IMG/VR virus record: IMGVR_UViG_3300042445_000578
Location: 1 to 57,503 of that record
Strand: one strand, 5' to 3'
Length of the DNA: 57,503 nucleotides
Origin: a virus
Taxonomy: Duplodnaviria > Caudoviricetes
The notes under the pieces are model-generated. The model was not told the DNA's origin. It saw only the letters and a list, made by a program, of their open reading frames with translations, and did no database searches. Below are positions 36,885-56,109 of the stretch, in pieces. Position 1 is the stretch's first letter, and every line of letters begins with the position of its first letter. Made by a program: the position numbers and the translations under genes.

Positions 36885-37148
36885 ATGAAAGACTTAGAGA
36901 AAACAATACGAGTAGCTGATAGATTCATGGCAATCACAACTCAAGACTTACCACAAGACCTAGCAGTAGATATCGCTATTCGTTTAGCCTACTGCCACAT
37001 GGATACACCATTGGACTTGGATGCCATGTTAGATACTGATGACCTATTCTCATTCAAGCATGATGTTGTTGGTATCTATAACCATTGGGATAACGATAGC
37101 AAGAAGCTGACTGGATGCTTCATGCCACGATTCGCCCAGTCAATCTGA
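36885..37148 (+). CDS. Early protein (DUF6874-like)
   Basis: PLDLDAML..DD.F.F.HDV.GI..H.D....L..CF.PRFA. Confidence 0.6.
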   Translation: MKDLEKTIRVADRFMAITTQDLPQDLAVDIAIRLAYCHMDTPLDLDAMLDTDDLFSFKHDVVGIYNHWDNDSKKLTGCFMPRFAQSI

Positions 37149-37191
37149 TGATGGCTTGAGTAGCCGAAACAGTCGTAAGACTGTCATTGAC
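37139..37191 (+). ncRNA. Type I hammerhead ribozyme 1
   Basis: GTCAAT-CTGATGA-T-GGCT(TGAGT)AGCC-GAAA-CAGTC(GTAA)GACTG-TC^ATTGAC; all three stems pair; predicted cleavage after C37185 (GUC). Confidence 0.88.
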
Positions 37192-37212
37192 ATAACAAAG
37201 GGGAAAATTATT

Positions 37213-37437
37213 ATGACAAGCAATTATCACAATGCCAGTATGGTTGATGTAGCGACTGCTATCGTTGACCGATTGATTGACAACTACGAAGGCAAAGGCG
37301 AATTCATCACTGAATTCTATGAGCTATCTGAACTGATTGGCAAAGCTATTGCCAACTCTAACCACTTCAATCGCATTGAAGAAATCGCCATGGAAAATGG
37401 TGTTGTTGAATCTGACTACTTTGAAGGGGAAGAATAA
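37213..37437 (+). CDS. Small acidic early protein
   Basis: AAGGGG RBS before ATG 37213. Confidence 0.65.
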   Translation: MTSNYHNASMVDVATAIVDRLIDNYEGKGEFITEFYELSELIGKAIANSNHFNRIEEIAMENGVVESDYFEGEE

Positions 37438-37712
37438 TGGCTAACTGGAAACATGAAATAGATGTTGCTGACTTGTATGCCAAGTATGAGTCTGCTGATA
37501 TTACCGATAGCGAAATGATTAACAGTCTGCACAAGGTGTTTACTGCCTTCATTGATGCTAACCCACAACTCAACGACATTGTTGACTTCTACCGATTCTC
37601 TGATGCCGTTGATGAGCTACTAATCGCTGATGACATTGAAGAAGCTGACTATGCCTTGCAGTCAATCTATGACTTCGCTGATGACAATCGTATTTGGATT
37701 AAAACCTTCTAA
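37437..37712 (+). CDS. Small acidic early protein
   Basis: 91 aa; IYDFADDNRIWI. Confidence 0.7.
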   Translation: MANWKHEIDVADLYAKYESADITDSEMINSLHKVFTAFIDANPQLNDIVDFYRFSDAVDELLIADDIEEADYALQSIYDFADDNRIWIKTF

Positions 37713-37722
37713 GGGGATGATG

Positions 37723-37887
37723 ATGAAACACTTTATTTACTTTTTAAACCTTGCTATTTTTGGTCTGTTTATGCTCTCTATCTATGTGGTATCAGAGAAT
37801 CCCGCACCTTTGTATATCTTTACTTTAATTGCATCAACTGTTGGTCTGTGCCTGATGTTTGCCTTGCACTGCGAAACTTCAGACTAA
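37723..37887 (+). CDS. Small 2-TM membrane protein
   Basis: AAGGGG RBS; two hydrophobic helices. Confidence 0.6.
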   Translation: MKHFIYFLNLAIFGLFMLSIYVVSENPAPLYIFTLIASTVGLCLMFALHCETSD

Positions 37888-37948
37888 CTGATGATGGGGT
37901 GAATCCCCGAAACTGGGTGCATAGCTACAAGTGCATCCAGTCTTAGTC
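37882..37948 (+). ncRNA. Type I hammerhead ribozyme 2
   Basis: GACTAA-CTGATGA-T-GGGG(TGAAT)CCCC-GAAA-CTGGGTGCAT(AGCTACAA)GTGCATCCAG-TC^TTAGTC; predicted cleavage after C37942 (GUC). Confidence 0.88.
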
Positions 37949-37959
37949 AACTGCTAGGA
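37946..37959 (+). promoter_or_regulatory. GTCAACTGCTAGGA leader/RBS element (putative sRNA target)
   Basis: 14-nt perfect complement of the candidate sRNA; includes the AGGA(G) RBS of the ORF at 37967. Confidence 0.7.
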
Positions 37960-37966
37960 GATACAA

Positions 37967-38155
37967 ATGATTCAGTGGTATATCAATTCAAAGCCTGTGC
38001 CTAAAGCTATTGCTAGGGTTCACTTGGAAAACGCCATGCCTTATCGGACTGCAAGAGAGATTGCATCCGCTATGACTGGTGCATTGAAAAAGGATGAATT
38101 CTTTGTCAAGGTATGTGCTGACTATGGCGTGCATTACGCTAACTTAACTCATTAA
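37967..38155 (+). CDS. Early hypothetical protein
   Basis: AGGAG RBS; 62 aa. Confidence 0.65.
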   Translation: MIQWYINSKPVPKAIARVHLENAMPYRTAREIASAMTGALKKDEFFVKVCADYGVHYANLTH

Positions 38156-38165
38156 GGGGAAACTA

Positions 38166-38345
38166 ATGAAATTTATGATTGAAATCCGCACCGATAACTC
38201 AGCGTATGAGCAGTCTTTTTATGATGAGATTATTGCCAACTTGCAACTGGTTATCAGGATGGTTGATTCTCAGTTTAAGGTAGGTGTCATTCACGATACC
38301 AATGGCAACAAGGTAGGCAAATTTTTTACAGTGGAAGGGGATTAA
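38166..38345 (+). CDS. Early hypothetical protein
   Basis: AAGGGG RBS; MKFMIEIRTDNSAY...DTNGNKVG (59 aa, not in ORF track). Confidence 0.65.
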   Translation: MKFMIEIRTDNSAYEQSFYDEIIANLQLVIRMVDSQFKVGVIHDTNGNKVGKFFTVEGD

Positions 38346-38346
38346 C

Positions 38347-38916
38347 ATGGGATGGACTGGTTCACAAAAGTTTGACTCACTGCCAACAAAGGACTGGTTA
38401 GTAAAGGAATTCACTAACGAGTCTGATACTCACAAGTGGGAATTAACGGATGTATCCATGCGTGGCAACACTGCGTATGGCATCCACAAGGTGCAAGACA
38501 AAGCTACTGGGATTATCTTGGCTGAAGCCATCATTATCCTGACTCGCAAAGAGGATGGTTGGCTTTACTTCAAGGAAATGGGGGAAACTGTGCATCCCTA
38601 CTACTATGATGCACCGAAGAAGCTACTGGATAAACTGGATGCTCTCTTTCCACCATTTAATGACAATGCCAAGGCATGGCGTGATGCCTGTCGTGCAAAA
38701 GCCACCAAGAAGAAATCTGCCAAGCTAGTTATTGGGGATGTGGTCAAGTTTGCCAAGCCAATGAGCTTTGGGCAATTCTCTGAGGATACCTTTACCTTTG
38801 AAAGCTACTTTGGTAAGGATTCTTTCAGAGCCACCAATGGTGTGCTATGTCGCATTACCAAGTGGAAGCAGAGGGATTTTGAGGTTTTATCAACAAAAGG
38901 GGAAAGCAATGAATGA
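38347..38916 (+). CDS. Early protein (DUF6927-like)
   Basis: MGW.., KEMGETVHPYYYDAP..LL, AKAWR..C. Confidence 0.6.
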   Translation: MGWTGSQKFDSLPTKDWLVKEFTNESDTHKWELTDVSMRGNTAYGIHKVQDKATGIILAEAIIILTRKEDGWLYFKEMGETVHPYYYDAPKKLLDKLDALFPPFNDNAKAWRDACRAKATKKKSAKLVIGDVVKFAKPMSFGQFSEDTFTFESYFGKDSFRATNGVLCRITKWKQRDFEVLSTKGESNE

Positions 38917-39175
38917 ATTATCAAAGATGAATGAATTGGAGATTGAGGATCACTGGACTAATGAAGCCAGTAGTCTATTACTAGGCAAAAAGATAACTAG
39001 GGTTCGCTATGTAAGCCATAGAGAAGCAGAAGACATGGATTGGACTTCAAGACCTGTTGCATTTATGTTGGAAACTGGTATTTGGTTTTTCGCATCCATG
39101 GATGATGAAGGCAATGATGGTGGTGCGTTGTTTACTTCGCATCCTGAGAAATCAGTCCTTCCAGTGTTGAGGTAA
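38909..39175 (+). CDS. Early hypothetical protein
   Basis: AAGGGG RBS; SMDDEGNDGGALF. Confidence 0.65.
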   Translation: MNELSKMNELEIEDHWTNEASSLLLGKKITRVRYVSHREAEDMDWTSRPVAFMLETGIWFFASMDDEGNDGGALFTSHPEKSVLPVLR

Positions 39176-39177
39176 TT

Positions 39178-39387
39178 ATGAAAACAACGATTAAGGGGTT
39201 TGATTTGTCTGTCGTGGAATTGGATAACGACTCTGTTGCAATCAATTTTGATAAGGATGGTGCAACTGGTGGTTATATCAATATCAAGATGGATGATGAT
39301 GGTGTGGTGGTAGATGTGTTTAATGCCTGTGGGGACTGTATTAGCTCTACATGGTCTTTTTATAACGAACTTATGCAAGGGGAATAA
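39178..39387 (+). CDS. Small acidic early protein
   Basis: GAGG RBS; DDDGVVVDVF. Confidence 0.6.
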   Translation: MKTTIKGFDLSVVELDNDSVAINFDKDGATGGYINIKMDDDGVVVDVFNACGDCISSTWSFYNELMQGE

Positions 39388-39388
39388 C

Positions 39389-39724
39389 ATGGAATTGAAT
39401 CAATTTACTGGGACTGAAAACTATCATAGGTCATGTATGTTTGTGCCTAAGATGGTGCATACGGATGGCGTTGACTACTTCTGCTCTGAAGCCAGTGCCT
39501 ACTGGTTTTTGGATATTGTGGCAACTGAAGTATTTCCATTGCAAGAGGTGGATTACTTCTTGTCAATCAAGATGGTGGTGGCTGATGGCAAAGCCACAAT
39601 CACTGTGGAAGATGGGGACTGCAAGGTTTTAAAGACTAAGAACATTGAATTCACTGACTGCCCTGAAGGGGAGTATGAATTCTTTTTGACTGACAATGTT
39701 TTGATGCTAACTAGCGAATACTAA
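39389..39724 (+). CDS. Early protein (DUF6876-like)
   Basis: QFTGTENY, TDGV, AYWFLD, IEFTD.P, LML.SEY. Confidence 0.6.
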   Translation: MELNQFTGTENYHRSCMFVPKMVHTDGVDYFCSEASAYWFLDIVATEVFPLQEVDYFLSIKMVVADGKATITVEDGDCKVLKTKNIEFTDCPEGEYEFFLTDNVLMLTSEY

Positions 39725-39734
39725 GGGGGACACC

Positions 39735-40181
39735 ATGGGATTAGATATGTATTTAACTGCCAAGCGTTATGTTTGGAATTACAAAGATGAGGACAAAGCC
39801 TTGCAAGACCAACTGGATGATGTGATGAAAGATGATTTATCTGATGGCATGAGAGTCAAAGAAGTAGCGGTAGATGCTTTCTATTGGCGTAAAGCTAACC
39901 ATATTCACAAGTGGTTTGTGGATAACTGCCAAGGGGGTGAGGATGATTGCCAAGAATACTGGGTTGAAGCTAAACAACTGGTGCGACTCAAAGACCTGTG
40001 CGAGTCTGTCTTACTGCAAAAGGATGTGGGCTTATTGCCTACTGCGGATGGCTTCTTCTTTGGATCAACTGACTATGACGATTGGTATTGGTCTGAGATT
40101 GAAGAAACTGTTAAGGGACTTGAGAAAGTATTGAAACTGGATACTGCCAAGTGGGACTTCTACTATCGTGCTTCATGGTGA
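39735..40181 (+). CDS. Conserved phage early protein (MGLDMYL family)
   Basis: MGLDMYL, YWRKANHIHKWF, GFFFGS, FYYRASW. Confidence 0.65.
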   Translation: MGLDMYLTAKRYVWNYKDEDKALQDQLDDVMKDDLSDGMRVKEVAVDAFYWRKANHIHKWFVDNCQGGEDDCQEYWVEAKQLVRLKDLCESVLLQKDVGLLPTADGFFFGSTDYDDWYWSEIEETVKGLEKVLKLDTAKWDFYYRASW

Positions 40182-40186
40182 ATAAC

Positions 40187-40444
40187 ATGGGCAAATACAC
40201 TGTATATGCCTATGATGCCGAGATTGAACTGGGTGGGGAAACCTACTCAGTTTTACTGGGCATTGAGGAAGAAGGACACCCAAGCAATGCCTATGAGGAC
40301 TCATGGTGCGATAACAAGATTTACTACTACATGACTGATGCTGAACTAGCTGAACTCAAGAGTGGTGATGAGCTTGATGAGGGGACTATCTTGTTATCCA
40401 TTGATAAAGACAATCCGACTATCTATGAGGTGGAATATGAGTAA
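40187..40444 (+). CDS. Small acidic early protein
   Basis: Very D/E-rich ORF in operon. Confidence 0.6.
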   Translation: MGKYTVYAYDAEIELGGETYSVLLGIEEEGHPSNAYEDSWCDNKIYYYMTDAELAELKSGDELDEGTILLSIDKDNPTIYEVEYE

Positions 40445-40619
40445 TTTTTACATTGCGTATGCAACATCCAAGGTTTATCACCAAATAAAGGTGGTGGCTG
40501 AATCAGAAGAAGATGCAAAGCGTTTGATTGCTGAAGGCAATTACTATGCTTGGGATGAACTGGATAATGAAGATTTTCAAATACAAGAAGTAATTTTTGA
40601 TGGAGTGCATGATGCCTAA
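40437..40619 (+). CDS. Small acidic protein, DpnD/PcfM-like motif family
   Basis: VVAESEEDAKRL. Confidence 0.55.
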   Translation: MSNFYIAYATSKVYHQIKVVAESEEDAKRLIAEGNYYAWDELDNEDFQIQEVIFDGVHDA

Positions 40620-40797
40620 ATATAGCGTGTTAATGACCACTGCTGACTATGTGGAAGTGGAAGCAACTGATCCAAGGGATGCTGAAATGGTGGCTTGGGG
40701 TATGTATAAGGAAGGCGATATACGACCTGAACACCCTGAGTTTGTTTGTGAAGAAGCCGATTTAATTGAAGGGGATGATGATGGCAATGACCTATAA
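40609..40797 (+). CDS. Small acidic protein, DpnD/PcfM-like motif family
   Basis: MPKYSV..VEVEATDPRDAEMVA. Confidence 0.55.
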   Translation: MMPKYSVLMTTADYVEVEATDPRDAEMVAWGMYKEGDIRPEHPEFVCEEADLIEGDDDGNDL

Positions 40798-41071
40798 ATC
40801 AAATAGAAGTGAAAACCAATGGGACATATGGCATAGCAATGTCAATGGGGATGAAATACTGCATACATTCGCAACTGAAGAAGAAGCAGATTACTACTTG
40901 AAAACTGGTAAAAAACTCATAAGCAAAGCCATGGTGGAAGGATGGCTAGGGTCTGACAACATGAGTGTTGATGATTTTCTTGACCTATTAACTGAAATCA
41001 TCAATGAGGATTATCCATTGGATATCTTCAGAGCTGATGTTTTGGAATTTATGGAGATGGAAAATGCCTAG
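40781..41071 (+). CDS. Small acidic early protein
   Basis: AAGGGG RBS; FATEEEA. Confidence 0.6.
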   Translation: MAMTYKSNRSENQWDIWHSNVNGDEILHTFATEEEADYYLKTGKKLISKAMVEGWLGSDNMSVDDFLDLLTEIINEDYPLDIFRADVLEFMEMENA

Positions 41072-41237
41072 TTTTACTGCGAGTTTTTCAAGTGAAATAA
41101 GAGTATTGATTGATGCTGACACCATAGAACAAGCAGAAGAAATTGCTAGGGAAATGGAATTGAATCATTCAGATTTACAGAAAAACGGAGAACACTGGGG
41201 AACAGTGTTTTACGACATTAACGAATTTGAGGAGTGA
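41064..41237 (+). CDS. Small acidic protein, DpnD/PcfM-like motif family
   Basis: IDADTIEQAEEIA. Confidence 0.55.
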   Translation: MPSFTASFSSEIRVLIDADTIEQAEEIAREMELNHSDLQKNGEHWGTVFYDINEFEE

Positions 41238-41386
41238 TGATGCCGAAGTTTGAGATTACCTACAAGGAAGTAATTGAAGCTGAAAGCGAAGAGCAAGCGA
41301 TTGAGTGGTTATTTGTATATCTAGCTGATTGCTTGAGGGATGATGATGTATCTGTATTTAACTTTTTTGAACTTAAAGGGGAATGA
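41237..41386 (+). CDS. Small acidic protein, DpnD/PcfM-like motif family
   Basis: MPKFEITYKEVIEAESEEQAIEW (not in ORF track); GGAG RBS. Confidence 0.55.
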   Translation: MMPKFEITYKEVIEAESEEQAIEWLFVYLADCLRDDDVSVFNFFELKGE

Positions 41387-41388
41387 CT

Positions 41389-41943
41389 ATGCCTAACTGG
41401 TGCGATAACAACTTGTATTTAGAACACAATGATCCTGAGATGATTAAGAAGGCGAAAGAAGCATGGGAGTCTGGGAAGTTTTTAGCGACTTTTGTGCCTG
41501 AGCCTGATTACACAAAGGTAAAAGTAAAGCCTACTTTTGATAACAGTCATATTACTGGTAAGCCAGTGGCTGACTTTGTTAATCCTGACCAAGCATGGTG
41601 GGATTGGCGAGTGCAGAACTGGGGGACTAAATGGGACATTGGATATGATGCTGACCGAAGCAATCATGCTCAAGGATGCGATAAAACCATGTTTGTTTAC
41701 TTTGACTCTGCTTGGAGTCCACCAACTGATGCCTATGCCAAATTAGCTGAACTAGGGTTTTTGGTGAAAGCATTTTATTACGAAGGTGGATGTGCCTTCT
41801 GCGGTTCATGGATAGATGGTGTTGAGGACTTCCACAACATTGAAGAACAGACTCAGGCATGGGTAAAAGAGAATATTCCTAAATACATTGATGATGAGAT
41901 GGATATATCCATGCAATATGAATTAGATGAGGAGTGGGAATAA
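41389..41943 (+). CDS. DUF1281/YubB-like ferredoxin-fold protein
   Basis: MPNWC.N.L, WWDWRVQNWGTKWD, FDSAWSPP, YYEGG..F.G. Confidence 0.7.
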   Translation: MPNWCDNNLYLEHNDPEMIKKAKEAWESGKFLATFVPEPDYTKVKVKPTFDNSHITGKPVADFVNPDQAWWDWRVQNWGTKWDIGYDADRSNHAQGCDKTMFVYFDSAWSPPTDAYAKLAELGFLVKAFYYEGGCAFCGSWIDGVEDFHNIEEQTQAWVKENIPKYIDDEMDISMQYELDEEWE

Positions 41944-42233
41944 TGGGTGCGGTGGTATTTATGAATGTGGGACTGGGAAGCAGTGCCAAGAAAGCCTTTG
42001 ATAGTCTAGTTTACGAAGCTAGGTATCAGCATGGGCATGGTGGATACACTGGGACTATTGCAGAAAAGAACTCTTTTGTAATGATCCTATTAGCTGAAGG
42101 ACTGGATGCCTTCCAGTATGCCGAACAACTGATTGATGATGATGACAAAAGGGTATGCGATAAATGGGGGGATGCTGGGTGCATCCATATTAAAGATGAT
42201 GAATACTTATTCTTTGGATGGGCTTCAGAATGA
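41943..42233 (+). CDS. Early hypothetical protein
   Basis: GHGGYTGTIAEK, DKWG.AGC, FFGWASE. Confidence 0.6.
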   Translation: MGAVVFMNVGLGSSAKKAFDSLVYEARYQHGHGGYTGTIAEKNSFVMILLAEGLDAFQYAEQLIDDDDKRVCDKWGDAGCIHIKDDEYLFFGWASE

Positions 42234-42448
42234 CTAGAGATGAAATGATTAAAGAATTGATTGATGATGATATCAATGGGTGGTATGACAGAGATGATAA
42301 GGATGCCTTCTTCTCATACATCATGCTTAATGGGTGGACTGGATACAAGACTCAATCAGATGAAGAGCTAACGGAAGAGTGCTTCAATAGGGGAATCCTA
42401 GATGATACGCATCCATCCTTTGATCCAGTGCTAAAGAATGAGGTGTGA
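42230..42448 (+). CDS. Small acidic early protein
   Basis: GW.GY...SDEEL..E. Confidence 0.55.
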   Translation: MTRDEMIKELIDDDINGWYDRDDKDAFFSYIMLNGWTGYKTQSDEELTEECFNRGILDDTHPSFDPVLKNEV

Positions 42449-42944: not shown

Positions 42945-42945
42945 C

Positions 42946-43227
42946 ATGAATTTAAGACTAGCAAAAGGCAAAGTGCCGATTGATACTGGGGATGGGTATG
43001 TGTTTATACCCTTCCCTGATGAAGAGGAGTTTTGCCAACTGTATAACAACTATACCCCTATGGATAGACGGAAGCGATACTGGAAGGTGTTGTCTGAAAG
43101 AATCCAAGGTAAAACACTGAAGGACAGTGGATTACCTCATGGGATTAGTAAACAAAGGGTTAGGGAGATTGAAGCTAAGTTTATGAGATTGATCACAACG
43201 GCTTACTTTTGTAAACCAAAGGTTTGA
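42946..43227 (+). CDS. Sigma-70 region-4-like HTH protein
   Basis: R..GKTLKD.G..HGISKQRVREIEAK. Confidence 0.6.
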   Translation: MNLRLAKGKVPIDTGDGYVFIPFPDEEEFCQLYNNYTPMDRRKRYWKVLSERIQGKTLKDSGLPHGISKQRVREIEAKFMRLITTAYFCKPKV

Positions 43228-44023
43228 TTGATTGACTAGCTTTAAAAGTGCCGACTCTGAGATGGTAGTCGTTGAAATCTTCTCCAACTGTATCGGAAAT
43301 CCAATAAGGCTTGCCTGTTTTTTGGGCGGTGGATTCTCCAGTATGGTTGGAGTCGTTATCAGCAATGACGAACCCACTGGGGATGTGCCTACATATTTCT
43401 TGCATATTGCTTGCGGAAAAGCATATGTAGATGCAACACTCCAGTTTATTGGCTTGCATTACAGTCCTAATGGACAATCCAGTAGCAAAACCTTCGCAGA
43501 ATATAGGGATGCCTTTTGCACCGATCCTGAAGGATGCACCTTTAGTCTGTTGACCATACAAGAACTTCTTCTCCCCTTGCTCATTGATGAGCTGACACCC
43601 CACTACTTCCCTGTTAAATCGCATAGGTATTACCATTAACTTATCGCCTTTATCTGTGTTCCAGATCAACGATTCTTCGTCTGGGAAGCCTTTTTTTGCG
43701 AGATATTCATGCGTTTGGTGCTGACATTGAGAAATTATCCAAGTGGCTCTGGATTGAGCGTCTTTTGCCAGTTTCTGTCTTTCTGAGTCAAAACTGAGTT
43801 TTTTTCGCTGCAACTCTGGATTAAGCGCATTTCTGTCATCTGTCTTCCACATGGCTGGTTTGTCCATGGTAGCCCAATTCTGCACCCATCCAACATCTCC
43901 CATGAACTTATAACGACCATTGCGTTTGTGCGGATGGTCTTCTGTGGGGGTTGCCATCCATCTGAAAGGCGTTACATCTCCAAGAATCAAGCCATGGAGT
44001 CTTGCGAAATCTTCAAATCTCAT
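43193..44023 (-). CDS. DNA primase (TOPRIM domain)
   Basis: YLAKKG, GCQLI...GEKKFL.G, CEGFATG, IADND..G, DFND. Confidence 0.8.
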   Translation of the reverse strand: MRFEDFARLHGLILGDVTPFRWMATPTEDHPHKRNGRYKFMGDVGWVQNWATMDKPAMWKTDDRNALNPELQRKKLSFDSERQKLAKDAQSRATWIISQCQHQTHEYLAKKGFPDEESLIWNTDKGDKLMVIPMRFNREVVGCQLINEQGEKKFLYGQQTKGASFRIGAKGIPIFCEGFATGLSIRTVMQANKLECCIYICFSASNMQEICRHIPSGFVIADNDSNHTGESTAQKTGKPYWISDTVGEDFNDYHLRVGTFKASQSIKPLVYKSKPL

Positions 44024-45495
44024 TTGTTCTTACCTTTTGACCACCTGATGTTGCGTGATTTAATCCACTTTAAAGTAGCCATGGTTGGTGGAGTCGGTGC
44101 TTCAATCAGTCCCCTAGGCCATACGCCAAACTTCTCACGGTACTTGTGACTAGCCCAGTGTGGATTGTAGGCTTTCTCATTGGCTATAAAGATCAACTGG
44201 GAATAGAAGTCTTGCTTATCATCTTTCCTGACCTTGACTCCTGCCACCAACTCCTCTAAACGACCTGATACTGCATGAACTTCATTGCGTTTTTGACGGA
44301 TGTGACCGCAATTAGGACAAGTATCTGTTCCTTTGGGCCATAGGTGTTCGCATACTGGACACTTAGATTCCTTCTTTTTCTTCTCGGTTGGCTCTCTTTT
44401 GGCTTTCTCTCCCTCATTACTGAGTGTTTTTACGCCGTTTTCGTACAATTCATCCCAATCATCTTGGAATCTGAGGTAGTTTCCACTGTGATCTAGCCAT
44501 AAAGCGAACTCTTTGTCTGGATGTTGGCGCATAACTCGCCCCATTTGTTGCACATGGGATGAAAGAGATTTGCTAAACGGTCTTGCGGATATGCCAATCA
44601 TGACATCTGATACGTCAAAACCCCTTGTAAGAATGTCGGTGGCTATCAGTCCATGGATTTGTGTATCAGGCTTGGCAAAGTCTTCAATGGCTTCTTTCTT
44701 GAACTCATCATTGTCTTTGTAGCTGATGGATACAAAGTTATATCCCTTGATGGCAAACTGCTCCACAAGATCTGCTCCATGTGCCACGCCAGCACAAAAG
44801 ACAATGGTTTTTCTTGGTCTGCCAAATATCTGGTGGGTTTTATCAATCCATTCGGATACTATGTCCCCTGTTAGCTTCATTCCTCGCTCTGTGACCACAT
44901 CCCCTGACCATTCGCCAGCAATCTTCTTAGCCCCAGTCATGTCAATCTCTTTGGCAATGAAGACCTTTAATGGAGCAAGCCACTTTTTGCCTACCAAGTC
45001 TTCTGTGGTTGAACCGCATACAACATTCGTATACAAGTCCCCCAGTCCCTTAGTAAAGGGTGTGGCAGTTAAACCAATAACTCGGATGTTAGGGTTATCT
45101 TTGATGAACTCGGATGTTTGCTTTCTAGCAATATGACACTCATCCACAATCAGTAAGTCCATATCTGGAAAGTCATCTCTTCGTTCCAAGGTCTGAGCAG
45201 AACATACCTGTAGGCGTTCACGCTTGTCATATCGCCAGTGATTAGCCTGGAATACACCATGCTTTAGCCTGTATTTGTCCAGGCGTAGACTGGTTTGATC
45301 CACCAAAACAATGCGATCTAAGACCATGGCTGCGCGCTTGAACTTCTCGCCTGTAGCCTTCATCAAGGCAATGGCAACTTCTGTCTTGCCAAAGCCTGTT
45401 GGGGCATACAACAACTGTGATCTATGACCCTGACGGAAGCCTTCCCTGAGGGATTCTATGACATCTTGTTGATGTTCTCTTAGCTCTAGTTCCAT
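44020..45495 (-). CDS. Superfamily 2 DNA helicase with C-terminal Zn ribbon
   Basis: APTGFGKT, DECH, GLTATP, TRGFD, QQMGRVMR, CPVC..CPNC. Confidence 0.9.
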   Translation of the reverse strand: MELELREHQQDVIESLREGFRQGHRSQLLYAPTGFGKTEVAIALMKATGEKFKRAAMVLDRIVLVDQTSLRLDKYRLKHGVFQANHWRYDKRERLQVCSAQTLERRDDFPDMDLLIVDECHIARKQTSEFIKDNPNIRVIGLTATPFTKGLGDLYTNVVCGSTTEDLVGKKWLAPLKVFIAKEIDMTGAKKIAGEWSGDVVTERGMKLTGDIVSEWIDKTHQIFGRPRKTIVFCAGVAHGADLVEQFAIKGYNFVSISYKDNDEFKKEAIEDFAKPDTQIHGLIATDILTRGFDVSDVMIGISARPFSKSLSSHVQQMGRVMRQHPDKEFALWLDHSGNYLRFQDDWDELYENGVKTLSNEGEKAKREPTEKKKKESKCPVCEHLWPKGTDTCPNCGHIRQKRNEVHAVSGRLEELVAGVKVRKDDKQDFYSQLIFIANEKAYNPHWASHKYREKFGVWPRGLIEAPTPPTMATLKWIKSRNIRWSKGKNK

Positions 45496-45656
45496 TATTT
45501 TGTATATAAATCTGCAACTGAGTCTCTCATCTGTTTAGCCAAGAAGACAATGTTATCGGATTCAATGTCTACTGTGAGCCAGTCCTTTTTGTTGATTGCA
45601 TCATGAACCTCTCTGATGCTCATGTTTAGCTTAAGAATTGCTTCTGAATAGTCCAT
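45495..45656 (-). CDS. Hypothetical protein
   Basis: 53 aa MDYSEAILKL.., overlapping both neighbours. Confidence 0.5.
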   Translation of the reverse strand: MDYSEAILKLNMSIREVHDAINKKDWLTVDIESDNIVFLAKQMRDSVADLYTK

Positions 45657-46486
45657 TATGCTGTTTCCTTTAGTTTTCTTTTAAGTGAATTAACTGTCTT
45701 CATTAGCTCTGCGTTACGGTGCTGAAACATATCTCGGCTTTCACGCAATGATTTGTTATCAATCTCCAAGAGTCTGACTTGCTCACGCAACTCCTTGATT
45801 GTGTCTTCCACATCAATCTTCTCAATTTCTGAAGCATCCCACGCACCAATGGATATTTTGTCTTTGAGAAGGGTGACTTCCTCGTCTAACTGGGTGATAA
45901 CCTCGGTTAGCTCTTTGATTTTGTCTTCTTTCTCGTCATAGGTGGTGACATCAGGCTTGGTGGTTGGCGTTTCACGCTTACCAATGTTGCCAGTCTTCAT
46001 CTCTTTTTCTACACCATCCTTGGTGACAAACTTCTTGGTCTTTGGTTCATCCTTGATTTCCATGGATGCCTTGACTCGGCTGACCATCATGGCTGTTACG
46101 CCAACATGGGCTGCGATGCGAGCCTGTGTCCATTCCTTGTATCTTGGTTCAAGCAACATCTTTCTAACGATTTCTTTGTTGTCTTCTGGTGACATGGATA
46201 AGCCACGATCCTTGTTAGCACCGTAGGAATACTCTTTAGCATCATCCAGTGAGCCTTGGTAGACTTCTGCATCAATAGAAGCAGTGGCATTAGCCTTGGT
46301 AGCATGGTAGCGGTGGAAGCCGTCTGCAAGCCAATACTCTGCACCATCAAAGAATACGGTGACTGGTGGGAATGATGTGCCTTCACGCATGGCTTCTGCG
46401 TAATCTTTAACTACATCGTAGTTAATTTCTTTTCGTGGCTGTGTGCCACCGTCTATACGGATATTAAGAATGTTGAGTGTTTTCAT
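45656..46486 (-). CDS. ParB/Srx-domain protein with HTH and coiled coil
   Basis: TQPR, FPPVTVF, LADGFHRY.A; WTQARIAAHVGVT..MVSRV HTH. Confidence 0.8.
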   Translation of the reverse strand: MKTLNILNIRIDGGTQPRKEINYDVVKDYAEAMREGTSFPPVTVFFDGAEYWLADGFHRYHATKANATASIDAEVYQGSLDDAKEYSYGANKDRGLSMSPEDNKEIVRKMLLEPRYKEWTQARIAAHVGVTAMMVSRVKASMEIKDEPKTKKFVTKDGVEKEMKTGNIGKRETPTTKPDVTTYDEKEDKIKELTEVITQLDEEVTLLKDKISIGAWDASEIEKIDVEDTIKELREQVRLLEIDNKSLRESRDMFQHRNAELMKTVNSLKRKLKETA

Positions 46487-46772
46487 TTGTAGCTCCCATG
46501 CGAACTATGTTGTAAAAGATATTGGATAGTTCTAAAAAAGATTGATTAACGATACGCTCCTTAGGTTTTACCTTTAGATCTTCCAGGCGGAAAGCCCAAG
46601 TTGCCCTTTTACCTACAATGCGACCCTGTGTTCTGAGATAGGTCAAACGACCAGCTGCGGTGGCTGGACTAACCTTCAGAAGGTCTGCAATTTGAGATGT
46701 GGTGACTGCGCCATTTTGAGCAATGGCGTCAAGAATTTTGTCAGTGAATTCCTTGTTTTGCTTACCTGACAT
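46464..46772 (-). CDS. Winged-HTH DNA-binding protein
   Basis: ILDAI..NG.VTTSQIADLLKVS..TA..RLT.L...G.I; GGAGG RBS. Confidence 0.7.
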   Translation of the reverse strand: MSGKQNKEFTDKILDAIAQNGAVTTSQIADLLKVSPATAAGRLTYLRTQGRIVGKRATWAFRLEDLKVKPKERIVNQSFLELSNIFYNIVRMGATNENTQHS

Positions 46773-46826: not shown

Positions 46827-46836
46827 GATGTTCAGT

Positions 46837-47846: not shown

Positions 47847-47857
47847 CAACTATTTGC

Positions 47858-47984: not shown

Positions 47985-47990
47985 ACACTA

Positions 47991-48020: not shown

Positions 48021-48045
48021 CCTATAGTGTTTGTCAAGTAAATAT

Positions 48046-49096: not shown

Positions 49097-49110
49097 TTTG
49101 CTCTCTTTCT

Positions 49111-50342: not shown

Positions 50343-50412
50343 TTCTTTAACTCCTTTAAGATGCACTCAAGGCGATACACAATCACGATGAGGCAGATTA
50401 AGATAGCCCAGC

Positions 50413-50706: not shown

Positions 50707-50863
50707 CCCTCACTCCAATCACTGTAGTAATACTCATAAACAGGCAACAATCCAAATAACCATGTACCAATCTTTCGCTTTTCAAGAGTCCTAGTGCGTA
50801 TGACTGGGTTAAATTTGTCGGGTGTATACCTAACTTGCATGTACTCGGTGTCGTCAACCTGCA

Positions 50864-51055
50864 TCACTTCACCATGCACGTGTAAGCCAATTTACCAATA
50901 CGGAACTGCTTCAAGGTATCGCAGTCCTGTTGTAACTGATAAGTAAAGGTGGCGTTGGAAACCATACTGCCTACAGCAAAGCCAACAAGCAGAACAATCA
51001 AGAAGTTGCGTAACTTGGCAATCCAAGCCTTGTCTTCTTTAATATCTGTATCCAT
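50864..51055 (-). CDS. Small membrane protein
   Basis: One TM segment, two C-terminal Cys. Confidence 0.5.
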   Translation of the reverse strand: MDTDIKEDKAWIAKLRNFLIVLLVGFAVGSMVSNATFTYQLQQDCDTLKQFRIGKLAYTCMVK

Positions 51056-51386
51056 TGCTGCTTCCTTTCTTTTTACTGTAGTTAGCGTTCATAGTAAAAG
51101 CTGTGACTGGATAACGCATCTTTTGGTTAGTATCAATCCAATACACAATCACAGTCTCATCTTCAACACCCCAACAACCTTCGCTTGTGTATCCTGCTGA
51201 ACCATAGTTGTAAGCACGGTTTAACTTATCAAACACTTGACCATCGTATTTACACTGTTGATCAGTTAATACAATCTTTCCACCAGCCTGGTTAGGTTGG
51301 GTTGCGACTGTCTCAGCCTTAACTGAAAACGTATAAGCAGCCATCCATGCAACAAGCACACCTCCAATTACATACCTAGTTTTCAT
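51039..51386 (-). CDS. Exported protein
   Basis: Signal-like N-terminus; NQAGGKIVLT..C...GCW. Confidence 0.55.
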   Translation of the reverse strand: MKTRYVIGGVLVAWMAAYTFSVKAETVATQPNQAGGKIVLTDQQCKYDGQVFDKLNRAYNYGSAGYTSEGCWGVEDETVIVYWIDTNQKMRYPVTAFTMNANYSKKKGSSNGYRY

Positions 51387-51688
51387 TGTTTTCCCTTTCG
51401 TTCCTTGGCGTTTTGCAAGCATTTTGCACAGCACCAACGTTTAACAAGCCCCTTGTTTGATACGATCCACTCACCACCGATAGGGGTTTTCATCAGACGG
51501 CAGGATGTACACCACTTATTCTGATCATTCACCCTTTTTAACTCTCCGCTTGATAGCTGGTAACCCAGCAGACTCTTCTTTCTTTCTTGCTTCTAGCATC
51601 TCGTCTGCAAATCTGTAGCACTCTTCTGCGCTTGCTCCAGTCATTGCTCTAAACATGGCAAAGCAATCTCTCAAGTCATCTTCGTTCA

Positions 51689-51910
51689 TCAATGCACCTC
51701 TCTCATCATGCGTTTAATCCTACGCTGGGCATTGTTGTAAGACTTACGGAAAGCATAGACAGCCTTCTCTTCTTCCATGCCAGCTTCTACTGCAATCGTG
51801 GCAAGCACCATGCTCACAGCTGAAAGAATGACTACCGTATCAGTGCCACCCTTCTCAGACAAAAGCCTTAGGATGGATATTGCAACTTCTCTTGACGGAT
51901 CTTCACTCAT
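51689..51910 (-). CDS. Hypothetical protein
   Basis: 73 aa ORF in operon. Confidence 0.5.
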   Translation of the reverse strand: MSEDPSREVAISILRLLSEKGGTDTVVILSAVSMVLATIAVEAGMEEEKAVYAFRKSYNNAQRRIKRMMREVH

Positions 51911-52185
51911 TTCATCTCCAGTTCTTTGATTTGGTCAGCGATGTGAGTACCCAAAGTCCGCTTATGGATAACAATCATCTTGGCTTCAGGGGAGCAGCCG
52001 ACTACCTTGGCAGCATCCATCAAACCCTTGTTGTAGCCACTCTTAAATTGATCGTTACCATCTAACATGGTGACAATCGCATTGCGGATTAGCTCTGAGG
52101 CCTTACGTTCTTTAGCCAGCTTTCTCAGCTTCTTGACGTGTTCTTCAGGCAAGTAAACTGAGTACGGGACTAGTTTCTTTTCCAT
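51907..52185 (-). CDS. Ribbon-helix-helix-like DNA-binding protein
   Basis: YSVYLPEE..KKLRKLA.....SELIRNAI. Confidence 0.6.
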   Translation of the reverse strand: MEKKLVPYSVYLPEEHVKKLRKLAKERKASELIRNAIVTMLDGNDQFKSGYNKGLMDAAKVVGCSPEAKMIVIHKRTLGTHIADQIKELEMK

Positions 52186-52589
52186 GCGTTAAATTCCTCT
52201 ACTAGTTTTTTCATAAGTTTCTGGGCGTTTGCATCAGTTTTAAGCTCGGAACGGGACTGGATACCTAAGTAATTACGCATCCACTCAGTTGCTTCCTTCT
52301 CGTTCTCTTCAAATATCTGGGTATCTTCATACAAATACTTCCAAAATTGGGTGTCTTTGCAGAACATCCCAGCGATCCGAATCATCTTGTCACCTTCAAA
52401 CTCGGCTGGTCGGTTCATAGGTTGCTCATTGGCATCAATCCTGACCATGGCAACGCCATACCGCGCCCCAACATAATCCCTGAGAAGCTCCTCTGGAATA
52501 TCGTCTGGGTGGATGGAAAGCGTCAGCACATAGCCAGTCTTATCTTGCTTGATGGCTACCTTGACACCCTCAAACTGTAGCGGTTTCAC
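52170..52589 (-). CDS. Conserved phage protein
   Basis: QFEG.K....QDK.G..L.L.IHPDD.P, LGI.SRSEL. Confidence 0.55.
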   Translation of the reverse strand: MKPLQFEGVKVAIKQDKTGYVLTLSIHPDDIPEELLRDYVGARYGVAMVRIDANEQPMNRPAEFEGDKMIRIAGMFCKDTQFWKYLYEDTQIFEENEKEATEWMRNYLGIQSRSELKTDANAQKLMKKLVEEFNAWKRN

Positions 52590-52818
52590 GAACTTTACCT
52601 TCTAGATACTTGATGATCGTGCGTTGCTCTGACACCGTAGCTTCTAGCAAGTCACAATCCACATAGGATTTAGCTAGTGCGTTCTGTAGTTTTTGGCATA
52701 GATCTTGAAAGTCAACCTTGGCTTGTTCTTGATCCCACTTTTCTAGCTGTTTCTCTAGTGATACAGCTGGGTTAGTCTTGCGTGGTTGTTTATCTTTAGC
52801 ACCTTTAGTTCTTGGCAT
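52570..52818 (-). CDS. Hypothetical protein
   Basis: MPRTKGAKDK; AAGGAG RBS. Confidence 0.5.
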   Translation of the reverse strand: MPRTKGAKDKQPRKTNPAVSLEKQLEKWDQEQAKVDFQDLCQKLQNALAKSYVDCDLLEATVSEQRTIIKYLEGKVRETATV

Positions 52819-52828
52819 ATTGTTCTCC

Positions 52829-53083
52829 TTAGTATGGTAAGTCACTGTCTTTTTTAACCCATGGCTCTGAAGCCGCTAGGGATAAATACTCTTTGCCTGA
52901 TTTGGCAGTCTTTGACCATGCAGATATGGCAATCTTTACAAGAGGACCATCTGCCTTGTTCATCTGTTCAATGATGAATGTCTTGTCTAGGTGGACATCA
53001 CCACGCCAGTCAGGATGATTCTCCATCTGCTTCTGTTCATTAACAAACATTGCACCGCTATTTGGTTTTTGCTCGAAAGCCAT
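52829..53083 (-). CDS. Putative ssDNA-binding (DUF736-like) protein
   Basis: NSG.MF.N, HPDW.G, ISAW.K...SG..YLSL, C-terminal DLPY. Confidence 0.55.
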   Translation of the reverse strand: MAFEQKPNSGAMFVNEQKQMENHPDWRGDVHLDKTFIIEQMNKADGPLVKIAISAWSKTAKSGKEYLSLAASEPWVKKDSDLPY

Positions 53084-53085
53084 AA

Positions 53086-53826
53086 TTACTCCTTAGTTAG
53101 TTGTGTACGTGCTGCTGTGAATAACGCCATTAAATCTTTAAAGAAAACGGCATCGGTTGCTTTTACTATGTCAAACAGGGTCTTGTTCTTCTTAAAAATG
53201 TGCATAACGTCTTCTTCGCTTGCAGCAGTCATTAATAGAACCTTGCAGGCATCCTTGATGTTTGCTAACCATGCAGGGATATCTAAATCTGAATCAGGCT
53301 TGGCAGGTGCTACGATCTGAAACTCTCCTGCTTGACCAGTGATTGGTCTGATTGGTTTTAAGTTTGCATCAACAGGCTCACCGTTAACAGTTTTAATTAC
53401 TGGCTTAGGTGCAACTGGTTTTGCCGTAAATTTCGGAGTCTCATCAGGATTTGCTGTTTCATCCAAAATATCATTCTCAACAATCTCAAAAGCATTAGTC
53501 CATAGATAACGGCGTAGGTAAGTCTGCACAGCGCCTAAGTTCTGAACTTCATGACTACCTTTTAATGAAGCTGTTGACATAGGGGAAGTGAATGTAACAA
53601 AGTCACCATCACCACCTTCTGTGTCATAGATAGTCAAATAAGCCATCTCTTGGTTAAACGACACCACACCGCACAAGCCTAACTTTTGGCAGATGTTTTG
53701 AATAGCTGGCAAGAAGTCAGCCAATACAAAATATTCATATCCAGCAAACTTATTCTTACCTGACTTGGTTAGCTTGGTGTTCTGCAACATCAACCGTGCA
53801 TCTTGTAACTTTTTATATACGCTCAT
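53086..53826 (-). CDS. ERF-family single-strand annealing protein
   Basis: KSGKNKFAGY.Y..L.D, QNLGAV.TYLRRY. Confidence 0.85.
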   Translation of the reverse strand: MSVYKKLQDARLMLQNTKLTKSGKNKFAGYEYFVLADFLPAIQNICQKLGLCGVVSFNQEMAYLTIYDTEGGDGDFVTFTSPMSTASLKGSHEVQNLGAVQTYLRRYLWTNAFEIVENDILDETANPDETPKFTAKPVAPKPVIKTVNGEPVDANLKPIRPITGQAGEFQIVAPAKPDSDLDIPAWLANIKDACKVLLMTAASEEDVMHIFKKNKTLFDIVKATDAVFFKDLMALFTAARTQLTKE

Positions 53827-53936
53827 TCTGTATCCTTATTTTTAGCAAATTCGTAGTCAGAACGGTACTCCGTTGGGGATGTCCATCCAAACTTACGCCA
53901 TGTTCTTTGGGCGTCTGTATCTTTCATAAAACCTCC

Positions 53937-55067
53937 TTAACGTGCTGACTGTCTTTCTTCCATTTGTGATATTAATAAACCAACCTTACTTGTTGAAACA
54001 AATCCACTACTAATTTCATCTTCATCAGCCTCAACAGATGACACATTAAAATCTGCTGTAGCCAATCCCTGAAACTCAGGAGCAGTAACTAAACATTTGT
54101 AACCTTTCCAAGTAAAATCATTCATTCCTCTTATGTGTTCTTTAACGATTGTTGTTTTGTTTTCGTATTTCCTTTCGTGTTGTTTTACAAAGTGGATAAT
54201 CTTTTTCTTCTGACCAGTAGGCGTTACAGCAGTCTTATCCCTATCTGAAAAGTATTTTTTAGTTAGAGATTTATCAATAGAAAATGTCACCCTATCTCCA
54301 CTATGCTTTACTGCAACACTCCAACTATTTTTTCTGTTAACCCAAAAATCAAACATGTTCTTAAATAAAGCCTTTAATAAAGTTGTTGGCTCATACTCAT
54401 CTTTGACCCAATCTGTAATGAGATCAGGATTAGAAAATACTGGTTTTTTGTAGCTTTGGTGTTTGTTCTTACCTTTTGTAATTTGAACGGTGTCAAACCT
54501 ATGCTCTTTGCATACATCTATTTCTCCGTTCTTTTTAACAACAATCCAAGCCGCTATCCAATATAAATGACCACTCATCCTGTAGGCCAAACCAACCTTA
54601 TAAATAGTTCCAGTCTTCTTTTCTGTATACCAAGGTAATGACTTTACTTTTATGCCAAACATGAAGTCAGGAGATAGCGTTTTTGATTCATCATCTTTTT
54701 CTTTATTTCCAAGAACTGACACAAGCATCATTGACGGCATTGTTTTTGATGTATCAATCAACATATTATCGTTTGTAATGTCAATTATTCCTGTTGATGG
54801 CACATAAGAACCTAGCTTTTTAAGTCCCAATACTTCATCTTGATGGAGCCAGCTTCCATGTTTACCAAACTTAAACTTGTAAGCGTTAAAAGTTTCCTCA
54901 ATATCATCCAATAACTCGCTAAGTGTTTTTGGAACATCATCTTTGGAATCAGACGTATCTTCTATTTCATCAATAATTTGTGGCTCAGGAACAATCAGCT
55001 CTGGGTTTTTAAACCAACTGAGGATTGTAAGTAATGCACCACCAATTTTTTCCATCACTTGACTCAT
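53937..55067 (-). CDS. Hypothetical protein
   Basis: ~376 aa; IIHFVK.HER....T.VKEH.RG motif; AT-richer than neighbours. Confidence 0.6.
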   Translation of the reverse strand: MSQVMEKIGGALLTILSWFKNPELIVPEPQIIDEIEDTSDSKDDVPKTLSELLDDIEETFNAYKFKFGKHGSWLHQDEVLGLKKLGSYVPSTGIIDITNDNMLIDTSKTMPSMMLVSVLGNKEKDDESKTLSPDFMFGIKVKSLPWYTEKKTGTIYKVGLAYRMSGHLYWIAAWIVVKKNGEIDVCKEHRFDTVQITKGKNKHQSYKKPVFSNPDLITDWVKDEYEPTTLLKALFKNMFDFWVNRKNSWSVAVKHSGDRVTFSIDKSLTKKYFSDRDKTAVTPTGQKKKIIHFVKQHERKYENKTTIVKEHIRGMNDFTWKGYKCLVTAPEFQGLATADFNVSSVEADEDEISSGFVSTSKVGLLISQMEERQSAR

Positions 55068-55948
55068 ACCAACTCCTTTCCACTGTTGTAATCTTTCCAT
55101 TGGCTACAGAAATCCCGTACTTGGCAGAAGTTGGCGCAACGAGTACGCTCCCCTGGTCTTATTTCTATTTCATACTCATCGCTGAGTTCCTTTAGGGCTT
55201 CAATGGCATAGTCCTCTCGGTCATATACCTTCTTAGCCTTGATACCGCCCCTCTTCTTGATCGCCCAAGTGGTAGGCTTTTCCCACATCTCTGACGGAGT
55301 GCAGTCAGGTAAGTCACCATCAGTTTCCATGGCGAACTCACAAGCACTATGCAATGCCACCCTTTTAGAGATAAACTGTTCTCGCTCGTCAAACGACCAC
55401 AGTTTGATAGGGATTTCTTTGACTGGAGCTTCTGGATAACCCTCTTTCGTAGCGGCTTCTCTACGATTCCAGTCACGAATCAACCCAACGATACCTACTG
55501 AACTAACGGTCTGCTTCTTGGCACGTTCAATTAACCATGCGTAGATGTTGAGTTGCTGTTCCCACTCAATCTTCTCGTTCATCATTGCCCAAGCAGATGT
55601 AGTCTTATAGTCACGAATGTCAATCGTGCCATTAGAGTTAACGATCTGTAGGTCAATAGCTCCTGAGATGTGCCAACCGTCATGTTCCACATGGATACGC
55701 TGTTCCACCACATGGTTGCCATCCTTGCCATGCTCAAGAATGTTGTGCATTGCTGAACCGAATAGCGACCAAATCATGTCGGCTACATCCTGTTCTAGCT
55801 CTTCATCAAACTTCTTGGTCAAAGCAACGATTTTTGGGCTATTCAACAGCTGAGTCGCTGAGATATTAGCCTTACCTTTGCTGTAAGTAGGGCGTTCCAA
55901 GACATTCATGAACGTCTGTGGGATGCCATACTTATTGGTTAGTTTCAT
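55064..55948 (-). CDS. PD-(D/E)XK (Cas4/RecB-like) exonuclease
   Basis: SATQL, GSAMH, ISGAID, IRDYKTT, QLNIY, RC..FC.V..FC. Confidence 0.8.
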   Translation of the reverse strand: MKLTNKYGIPQTFMNVLERPTYSKGKANISATQLLNSPKIVALTKKFDEELEQDVADMIWSLFGSAMHNILEHGKDGNHVVEQRIHVEHDGWHISGAIDLQIVNSNGTIDIRDYKTTSAWAMMNEKIEWEQQLNIYAWLIERAKKQTVSSVGIVGLIRDWNRREAATKEGYPEAPVKEIPIKLWSFDEREQFISKRVALHSACEFAMETDGDLPDCTPSEMWEKPTTWAIKKRGGIKAKKVYDREDYAIEALKELSDEYEIEIRPGERTRCANFCQVRDFCSQWKDYNSGKELV

Positions 55949-56049
55949 TCAATTCCCCTTTCAATAAATGATTTAGCGCACCGCATGGCAACAACCACAA
56001 TGGCTACTGGCAACAATACAGCGGTAACGATACCGACAATTACTCTCAT
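55945..56049 (-). CDS. Small membrane peptide (34 aa)
   Basis: MRVIVGIVTAVLLPVAIVVVAMRCAKSFIERGIE; ATGA overlap with the exonuclease. Confidence 0.5.
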   Translation of the reverse strand: MRVIVGIVTAVLLPVAIVVVAMRCAKSFIERGIE

Positions 56050-56061
56050 TAAATTTTCCTT

Positions 56062-56109
56062 TCCTAGCAGTTGAGACTCTAGATTACTGCTTGTTTAGGG
56101 GTATGTCAA
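56062..56109 (-). promoter_or_regulatory. Sigma70 promoter with TCAACTGCTAGGA at about +1
   Basis: TTGACA (56109-56104)-N17-TAATCT (56086-56081)-N6-TCAACTGCTAGGA. Confidence 0.75.

Follow-up and report, generated by a model that had tools for sequence, protein, structure and literature searches.

In an uncultured freshwater phage (Duplodnaviria; Caudoviricetes), the minus strand next to the replication operon probably encodes a trans-acting antisense small RNA (sRNA) that pairs with the leader of the replication-operon transcript and with the ribosome-binding sites (RBSs) of other first cistrons. The DNA analyzed, here called the window, is the whole IMG/VR record IMGVR_UViG_3300042445_000578 (57,503 nucleotides [nt]), and the candidate sRNA gene lies at 47984-47864. 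Sequence comparison points to such an RNA in two ways: the gene is an independent unit without an open reading frame (ORF), and its product would hold an unpaired seed whose complementarity to the targets has been kept by correlated change. The strongest point is one that the initial annotation of this DNA did not contain, namely that the target site at 47801 is the first half of a predicted two-segment duplex that co-varies across phages. The window was compared with 75 related viral loci anchored on the ParB-like protein and with 80 of 329 relatives anchored on the DUF968-like protein; individual loci are designated L006, L007, and so on.

A conserved unit for a probable small RNA beside the replication operon

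The initial annotation had placed an antisense copy of a recurring motif within a stand-alone transcription unit devoid of ORFs, and this was borne out. The unit has a promoter that matches the consensus at 11 of 12 positions as well as an intrinsic terminator, and, while small ORFs called mechanically overlie it, no frame is open throughout its 16 distinct homologues. By nhmmer, homologues were detected in 11 of the 75 ParB-anchored and 18 of the 80 DUF968-anchored loci, and that of L021 was recognized by eye. In 13 of the 16 homologues, a promoter like that of the window (TTGA[CT]-N17-20-TAnnn[TC]) is found at the same place.

The RNA is predicted to consist of three to four hairpins, without a conserved ORF. 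All 16 copies share the 5′ hairpin, the third hairpin, and the terminator, and in 14 of them hairpin 2 encloses the seed. The helices themselves vary, with at least six different ones in hairpin 2 and at least eight in hairpin 1. In the subfamily formed by the window, L016, and L012, the 3′ arm of hairpin 2 is subject to competition from an invariant local hairpin, and the seed is unpaired either way. These structures were judged from single-sequence folds rather than with a covariance model. MAFFT alignment followed by RNAalifold recovered the terminator and one invariant local hairpin and nothing else, because the alignments were not structure-aware. Taken together, the comparison supports a conserved, structured non-coding RNA encoded on the minus strand at this position.

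Two further observations concern possible additional seeds. AAGGGG is the Shine-Dalgarno (SD) sequence of 14 early genes in the window (36637-41389, plus strand) and of nine in L006, and among the seven phages counted these two alone carry a CCCCU loop in hairpin 3 of the sRNA (~47912-47898, minus strand, in the window). Hairpin 3 of the L082 sRNA, which is outside this count, also has a CCCCU loop. Since the match amounts to a single evolutionary event, it is just a lead for a second seed. In L016, the final early gene has the anti-motif CCTAGCAG at its 3′ end, directly before an intrinsic terminator (15270-15345, minus strand), and this looks like a second seed carried in a 3′ untranslated region.

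Predicted targets in the replication leader and at ribosome-binding sites

The transcript of the replication-operon leader would start ~50 nt downstream from the sRNA terminator. Its promoter was not reported by the consensus scan, as the −10 box TAATCT agrees with the consensus at only three of six positions, and was read from the sequence; the arrangement TTGCA[AT]-N16-18-TAAYCT is kept in 12 phages. Immediately behind this promoter, the leader can form 18 Watson-Crick and two G-U pairs with the loop of the sRNA and with the part adjoining this loop on the 5′ side, with a calculated energy of −32.6 kcal/mol for the cognate duplex. In the relatives, the complement is also split into two segments and amounts to ~10-26 paired bases. 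The second segment differs in L006, L007, L082, L086, L103, L111, L016, and L096, and in each of them it fits the sRNA of the same phage.

To quantify this agreement, each leader was paired with each sRNA in 12 of the 18 screened sRNA-bearing loci. The remaining six were dropped: L010, L021, L098, and L121 have no TTGCA[AT]-N16-18-TAAYCT promoter downstream, and L101 and L104 have just a distant match resembling a −10 box. The mean duplex energy was −31.2 kcal/mol for cognate pairs versus −21.7 kcal/mol for non-cognate ones, and not one permutation in 100,000 attained the cognate sum. Ten of the 12 leaders had their own sRNA as the best partner, and eight of the 12 sRNAs their own leader.

A conserved hairpin follows in the leader, and in the window, L006, L082, and L007 its 5′ arm is the second segment of the sRNA target. 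The stems differ and co-vary among these four phages, with the loop kept (CUGAAACAAY, or CAAACAA in L007). A block resembling this loop, GAAACAACTT, recurs in the second leader of the window (46803-46794); as it stands there in a different reading frame, its conservation appears to be at the nucleotide level.

The 10-mer CAACTGCTAG of the motif occurs exactly five times in the window, at 37948-37957 (plus strand), 46817-46826 (minus), 47801-47810 (minus), 47937-47946 (plus), and 56064-56073 (minus), the fourth being the antisense copy in the sRNA gene. About 0.11 copies of a given 10-mer are expected on both strands of 57.5 kb, and the reversed pattern, used as a control, had no match in the window. 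With one mismatch allowed, 10 were found versus 5.09 expected, so that the exact copies alone stand out. The four sense copies, which the initial annotation had assigned to predicted 5′ ends or RBSs, are indeed all close to such a signal, at most 7 nt from a −10 box or 4 nt from a predicted ribozyme cut. Three of them come 6-7 nt after a −35/−10 pair, and those at 47801 and 56062 each follow a TAATCT box by 6 nt, with a 17-nt spacer, as had been described. The promoter before the last of these, that of the recombination/early operon, was likewise read from the sequence after the consensus scan had missed it; its −35 box and the target are kept in L006, L017, L011, and L013. The structural operon, previously described as free of the motif, has no exact copy, and its partial matches of 8-11 nt, at 33126 and 2443-2453, are within coding sequence.

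The short targets at RBSs also change together with the sRNA. The window has ...CAGTTGA in the sRNA and (T)CAACTGCTAGG in the targets; L007 and L009 have ...CAGTTAA in the sRNA and TTAACTGCTAGG in three targets, CAAC having become TAAC. In L012, L016, and L021, where the sRNA is TCTCCTAGCAGAG and four to five targets are CTGCTAGGAGAT, the flank has switched sides: the sRNA has TCTCC 5′ of the core and no TTGA 3′ of it, and the targets have gained GGAGAT and lost CAAC. In L101 and L104, the change is in the core itself, with TAGCGG in the sRNA and CGCTAGGAGA as the target, replacing a U-A pair by C-G.

The length of the helix anchored on the core was summed over 81 sites of eight phages. The cognate sum was 781, compared with 729 ± 19 for the permutations, of which 43 of 40,320 reached it. 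The sites were those of 282 TGCTA occurrences that form a helix of at least 10 with any of the sRNAs, and the duplicate or near-duplicate loci L008, L009, L010, L019, and L022 were excluded. The co-variation of seed and targets in related contigs that the initial annotation had proposed to look for was thus found both for the adjacent leader and for the RBS sites, which supports the view that the relatives maintain the predicted sRNA-target complementarity by correlated change.

Outside the sRNA genes, 34 sites with the 8-mer CTGCTAGG were listed, 30 of them in sense orientation to the local operon, as inferred from context. Many are directly upstream of a start codon and come after a promoter, a hammerhead, or, in relatives, an element of two hairpins. 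Two sites are within coding sequence, that at 33126 in the window on the strand of the neighboring genes and that at 6202 in L006 presumably so. On the opposite strand are those at 36966 in the window, inside a plus-strand gene, and at 15310 in L016, whose other strand reads as the seed-like sequence before a terminator mentioned above. In whole records, the 8-mer falls in the early region in 7/7, 3/3, and 6/7 cases, and in a fourth record in 2/4.

Farther along the same leader, the window contains a Betaproteobacteria-1 RNA (97.4 bits versus a gathering score of 49.4), which is also above threshold at the same position in L007 (4733-4853), L009 (2503-2623), L012 (2754-2870), and L016 (9200-9320). 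It was the only Rfam family found at gathering level in the window and eight loci. This orphan RNA is now placed in the leader of a phage replication operon that the sRNA is predicted to target, and its position in five phages may bear on its function. It is followed by a conserved hairpin (47506-47540, minus strand; ~4885-4915 in L007) with CTAGG, the target core, in each arm. Phages without Betaproteobacteria-1 RNA have another long conserved leader there, with shared blocks such as ACTCCGCACGATAG and CCTGTCAGCGAGGGACTGG, for which no Rfam match at gathering level was obtained in L006, L013, L017, and L011 (of which L010 is a duplicate).

Hammerhead ribozymes and the proposed circuit

Two hammerhead ribozymes of type I are predicted in the early block of the window. 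Rfam searches at E ≤ 10 of 36000-57503 and 37050-38000 (951 nt) in the window and of 17400-20000 in L016 returned no hammerhead, twister, pistol, hatchet, or C4 RNA. Because Rfam misses these hammerheads, a strict type I descriptor was written, requiring the core boxes (with one extra base optional after the first), at least four, three, and four pairs in stems I, II, and III, respectively, and an A-U pair closing stem III. In the 1.1 Mb of the window and the 75 loci, it matched 13 distinct sites (14 rows), and it matched none in the reversed sequence. Both copies in the window and the 11 further sites have the type I core (CUGANGA, GAAA, A15.1-U16.1, and H17) in order. All 13 are sense to the early operon and have a 6-bp stem I, in eight different sequences; stems II and III differ among the sites yet remain paired, and an SD and start codon come ~10-25 nt after each. 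Homologues of hammerhead 2 with co-varying stems were found in L006, L012, L016, L017, and L009. Off the consensus, both hammerheads of the window carry a single additional U after the CUGAUGA box and before stem II, which is also present in L012, L017, and hammerhead 1 of L006. Some natural hammerheads contain an additional base there.

Motif and stem co-variation therefore support both hammerheads as real, with self-cleavage predicted. The initial annotation had joined them and the sRNA into one system. This may hold for hammerhead 2, whose predicted cut precedes a target, and is not supported for hammerhead 1, which has none behind it, so that the link between ribozymes and sRNA targets is partial.

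Two minor observations can be added. The homologues of hammerhead 2 in L006 (18157-18244, minus strand) and L016 (18508-18595, minus strand) have a tandem duplication of ~24 nt in stem III and still satisfy the descriptor. In relatives, an element of two hairpins, with co-variation at nine of 19 pairs, is found directly upstream of RBSs that contain an sRNA target and have neither a promoter nor a hammerhead. It gave no Rfam match, either at E ≤ 10 in L016:17400-20000, which holds two copies, or at gathering level in the other loci, and could serve in processing or represent an undescribed ribozyme.

In the mechanism that we propose, the sRNA of ~120 nt would be made constitutively from its own sigma-70-type promoter and ended by its intrinsic terminator, and the loop of hairpin 2 would present the seed to two kinds of target. 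Binding would be stronger to the first, the 5′ leader of the transcript of the replication operon, where ~20 bases would pair in two segments and may thereby open the conserved leader hairpin. The second kind would comprise 12-14 nt at the extreme 5′ end and SD region of three other first cistrons: the 14-codon ORF that precedes the genes for the winged helix-turn-helix (wHTH) protein, ParB, helicase, and primase, the small ORF ahead of the genes for the nuclease and ERF, and the gene that hammerhead 2 would release. The hammerheads, as predicted from their motif, would cut the long early transcript just upstream of RBSs, and these cuts together with the promoters would create short 5′ leaders holding the target. 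Pairing there might block ribosome entry or promote decay of the message. As the targeted ORFs that start at 46806 and 56049 overlap the next start codon, such a block could silence downstream genes by translational coupling. With accumulation of the sRNA, early and replication expression would fall, possibly as a timer or, in a carrier state, as immunity. That the whole forms an RNA circuit, in which promoters and ribozymes expose a common leader and a constitutive sRNA titrates all copies of it to give an early-to-late timer or superinfection immunity without a repressor protein, is a tentative and rather doubtful extension. The initial annotation had seen no CI-like repressor with a peptidase domain and no integrase, in agreement with PHROGs and Pfam searches that found no integrase, repressor, or recombinase among the 30 proteins scanned, which are part of the genes of the window.

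Several observations weigh against a trans-acting sRNA with all of these targets. Hairpins 1 and 2 are weaker in the window than in its relatives, and the adjacent leader of L017 pairs with the sRNA over 10 nt only. The cognate leader duplexes hold barely more G-U (11) than A-C (eight) mismatches, a count that does not distinguish RNA pairing from a DNA inverted repeat. When 150 RBS windows were ranked by RNAduplex, the targets were not singled out, scoring z = −2.4 and −1.9, under three spurious windows. The core CTGCTAGG hardly varies even between phages with ParB proteins that are just 40%-73% identical; this is more than free co-evolution predicts and hints at an added constraint, be it the SD, many simultaneous targets, or a protein. 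A target follows six of the 10 hammerheads in sRNA-bearing loci, those lacking one including hammerhead 1 of the window, its homologue in L006, and the copy in L007 and L008. The earlier claim that all non-structural units carry a target does not extend to the first plus-strand early promoter (~36577), which has none in the window; its counterparts in L016 and L017 do carry one. Finally, the four lake or freshwater runs that contain parts of the phage (shares of 0.06-0.18) are represented by sparse assembled contigs, which provide no ends, strand, or joints at the locus and are neutral with regard to expression.

Some of these points would be expected if the motif were instead a DNA operator, located at +1 of early promoters and bound by a phage repressor such as the wHTH protein, with the copy in the sRNA gene as another operator. 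Three copies are found at +1 to +13 of promoters, conservation of the core is strong, the mismatch counts do not favor RNA, and a wHTH gene heads the replication operon. The motif, however, is not a dyad, many sites are within operons at an SD and come after a ribozyme or hairpin element rather than a promoter, and nearly all are in sense orientation. The copy in the sRNA gene is always part of a hairpin loop midway along the RNA, and a protein-binding site leaves the 10-26 phage-specific bases paired with the adjacent leader unexplained. We consider an operator very unlikely.

An action of the sRNA on the adjacent replication leader alone would also account for part of the data, as extended pairing is confined to that leader, the short matches are not energy outliers, and the motif contains an SD. 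The matches of 10-14 nt at RBSs would then be a shared leader or RBS cassette without regulatory meaning. This appears unlikely to us, because the flanks at RBSs track the sRNA of their own phage (with TTAAC at three sites of L007, GGAGAT at four to five sites of L012 and L016, and CGCTAGG in L101), and because so few permutations reach the cognate sum over the 81 sites. Hardly credible, in our opinion, is that the complementary arms are DNA inverted repeats around an invertible promoter segment of ~135 bp, or that they pair in cis in a read-through transcript. The arms do flank a terminator and the leader promoter, and the strand test is neutral, but they are interrupted and imperfect, no recombinase domain was present in the 30 proteins scanned (part of the genes of the window), a strong terminator and a promoter stand between the arms, and the dispersed RBS sites would be left unexplained.

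Relation to known phage RNAs and genomic setting

The trans-acting sRNA that we favor has partial parallels in known phages. The c4 RNA of P1 and P7 pairs through two separate segments and is processed out of an operon transcript; we take the C4 antisense RNA family to be Rfam RF01695. The Rfam C4 model had no match to the sRNA at E ≤ 10, and the only weak match over 47858-47968 belonged to an unrelated family and lay on the opposite strand (18 bits versus a gathering score of 108), which places the sRNA outside the Rfam C4 family. In the parts of a 2025 review used here, loop sequences of c4 are described as pairing with the ant mRNA around its RBS (PMC12197685). The predicted sRNA resembles c4 (immI) as a small, non-overlapping phage RNA with loops complementary in trans to a downstream message near the RBS. 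Unlike c4, it has its own promoter and terminator, conserved in homologues, and instead of one message it would have at least four dispersed targets, which belong to replication, recombination, and early genes rather than to an antirepressor.

The CI RNA of satellite phage P4, encoded within or beside the leader of the replication (primase-helicase) operon, pairs with sites in that leader and prevents expression of the replication genes; it arises by processing of the leader and acts through premature termination. The sRNA shares with it the link of a regulatory RNA to a replication-operon leader, and differs in that no conditional terminator was found in the leader of the window and in that further targets are predicted in other operons. 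In T4, a single protein factor shuts off many early messages at their RBSs, as seen with the translational repressor RegA and the nuclease RegB. One factor would likewise act here on many early RBSs, except that it would be an RNA. Relative to c4 and CI, the features that appear to be new are the separate promoter and terminator and the several dispersed targets, one of them predicted to be released by a ribozyme. We know of few phage antisense RNAs that control development (c4, CI, sar, and OOP), each acting on one message. The consulted parts of the 2025 review mention no phage sRNA whose regulon is made up of early genes of the same phage, nor does the word ribozyme occur in them (PMC12197685).

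For hammerheads, the parts of Perreault et al. (2011) used here describe phage and prophage operons in which several copies flank single genes or short blocks in long transcripts, and the haloviruses HF1 and HF2, with a hammerhead 13 nt upstream of the start codon of an early helicase; they call the function unclear and name no partner RNA (PMC3088659). The ribozymes reported here are similarly located in a long early phage transcript near start codons. They differ in that six of 10 would release a 5′ end with an sRNA target, in being of type I with a 6-bp stem I, and in being missed by the Rfam models. In the literature searched, supplements aside, there was no account of this sRNA, of a link between an sRNA and ribozymes, or of a later answer on the role of phage hammerheads. 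If the tentative RNA circuit is true, phage hammerheads would gain a concrete job, that of defining translation units addressable by an sRNA within long early transcripts. The locus offers a directly testable link, in which a co-evolving sRNA could bind a leader made accessible by ribozyme cuts and promoters.

Coordinates of the features described, in the window unless a locus is named
Feature	Position	Strand	Remarks
sRNA promoter	47991-48020	-	TTGACA-18-TATATT, TG-extended -10; 11/12 consensus positions
Predicted sRNA, ~121 nt	47864-47984	-	5′ end placed from the -10 box, 3′ end from the terminator
Seed, complement of GTCAACTGCTAGGA	47935-47948	-	Loop of hairpin 2
Intrinsic terminator of the sRNA, 10 bp	47867-47893	-	Stem co-varies among homologues
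Leader promoter	47818-47846	-	TTGCAA-N17-TAATCT; read from the sequence
Extended candidate target TCAACTGCTAG + 2 nt + GTGCTTAGG	47790-47811	-	Begins with the 47801 site, 6 nt after TAATCT
Leader hairpin, loop CUGAAACAAU	47774-47791	-	5′ arm overlaps the second segment of the target
Betaproteobacteria-1 RNA (RF02932)	47570-47694	-	Within the same leader
Alternative leader	L006 ~9440-9700; L017 ~9650-9860; L013 ~3760-3990; L014 ~5530-5760; L021 ~2440-2680; L010 ~5190-5300		
Promoter	46834-46862	-	TTGACG-N17-TAAACT; 9/12 consensus positions
Candidate target CAACTGCTAGGA (12 nt)	46815-46826	-	~+1 of the transcript, RBS of the leader ORF; 7 nt after TAAACT
Leader ORF, 14 codons	46762-46806	-	Spans the wHTH gene's SD and start codon (46772)
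Promoter of the recombination/early operon	56081-56109	-	TTGACA-N17-TAATCT; read from the sequence
Candidate target TCAACTGCTAGGA (13 nt)	56062-56074	-	RBS of the 34-codon ORF 56049-55945; 6 nt after TAATCT
Hammerhead 1, type I	37139-37191	+	Predicted cut after 37185; no sRNA target behind
Hammerhead 2, type I	37882-37948	+	Predicted cut after 37942
Candidate target GTCAACTGCTAGGA (14 nt)	37946-37959	+	Starts 4 nt past the predicted cut of hammerhead 2; overlaps SD of gene 37967-38155
Two-hairpin element	L016 17589-17670, 19486-19567; L012 10750-10831; L017 15247-15328; L007 9920-10001, 12088-12169	-	
Structural genes	3 to ~36288	-	Small-terminase-like gene last
Early block	36649-43227	+	~25 small genes
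Replication operon	43193-47383	-	Toprim-domain protein, helicase, ParB-like, wHTH (heads operon)
Replication genes wHTH, ParB-like, helicase, Toprim (primase-like)	43193..46772	-	From domain searches
Second operon (recombination/early)	48046-56049	-	DUF968-like, two glycosyltransferases, ERF, PD-(D/E)XK nuclease

The record of 57.5 kb is estimated to be ~90% complete and has a G+C content of 43%. No tRNA genes were found in it, and a megablast search of 43000-57503 against a phage collection gave no match. A contig search with the DUF968-like protein retrieved seven loci (in Cupriavidus, a Limnohabitans metagenome-assembled genome, and others), none of which had the sRNA downstream. Among the replication genes, the Toprim domain match scored 26.4 bits, slightly under the Pfam curated cut-off of 27.2. 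L017 has a leader ORF in the same position as that before the wHTH gene, with a different sequence, and the 34-codon ORF of the second operon overlaps the start of the PD-(D/E)XK nuclease gene. In the same operon, the Pfam matches of a gene for a DXD sugar transferase (49111-49770, minus strand) include the catalytic glycosyltransferase domain of TcdA/TcdB (E = 2e-10), which probably reflects the common fold of a phage glycosyltransferase.

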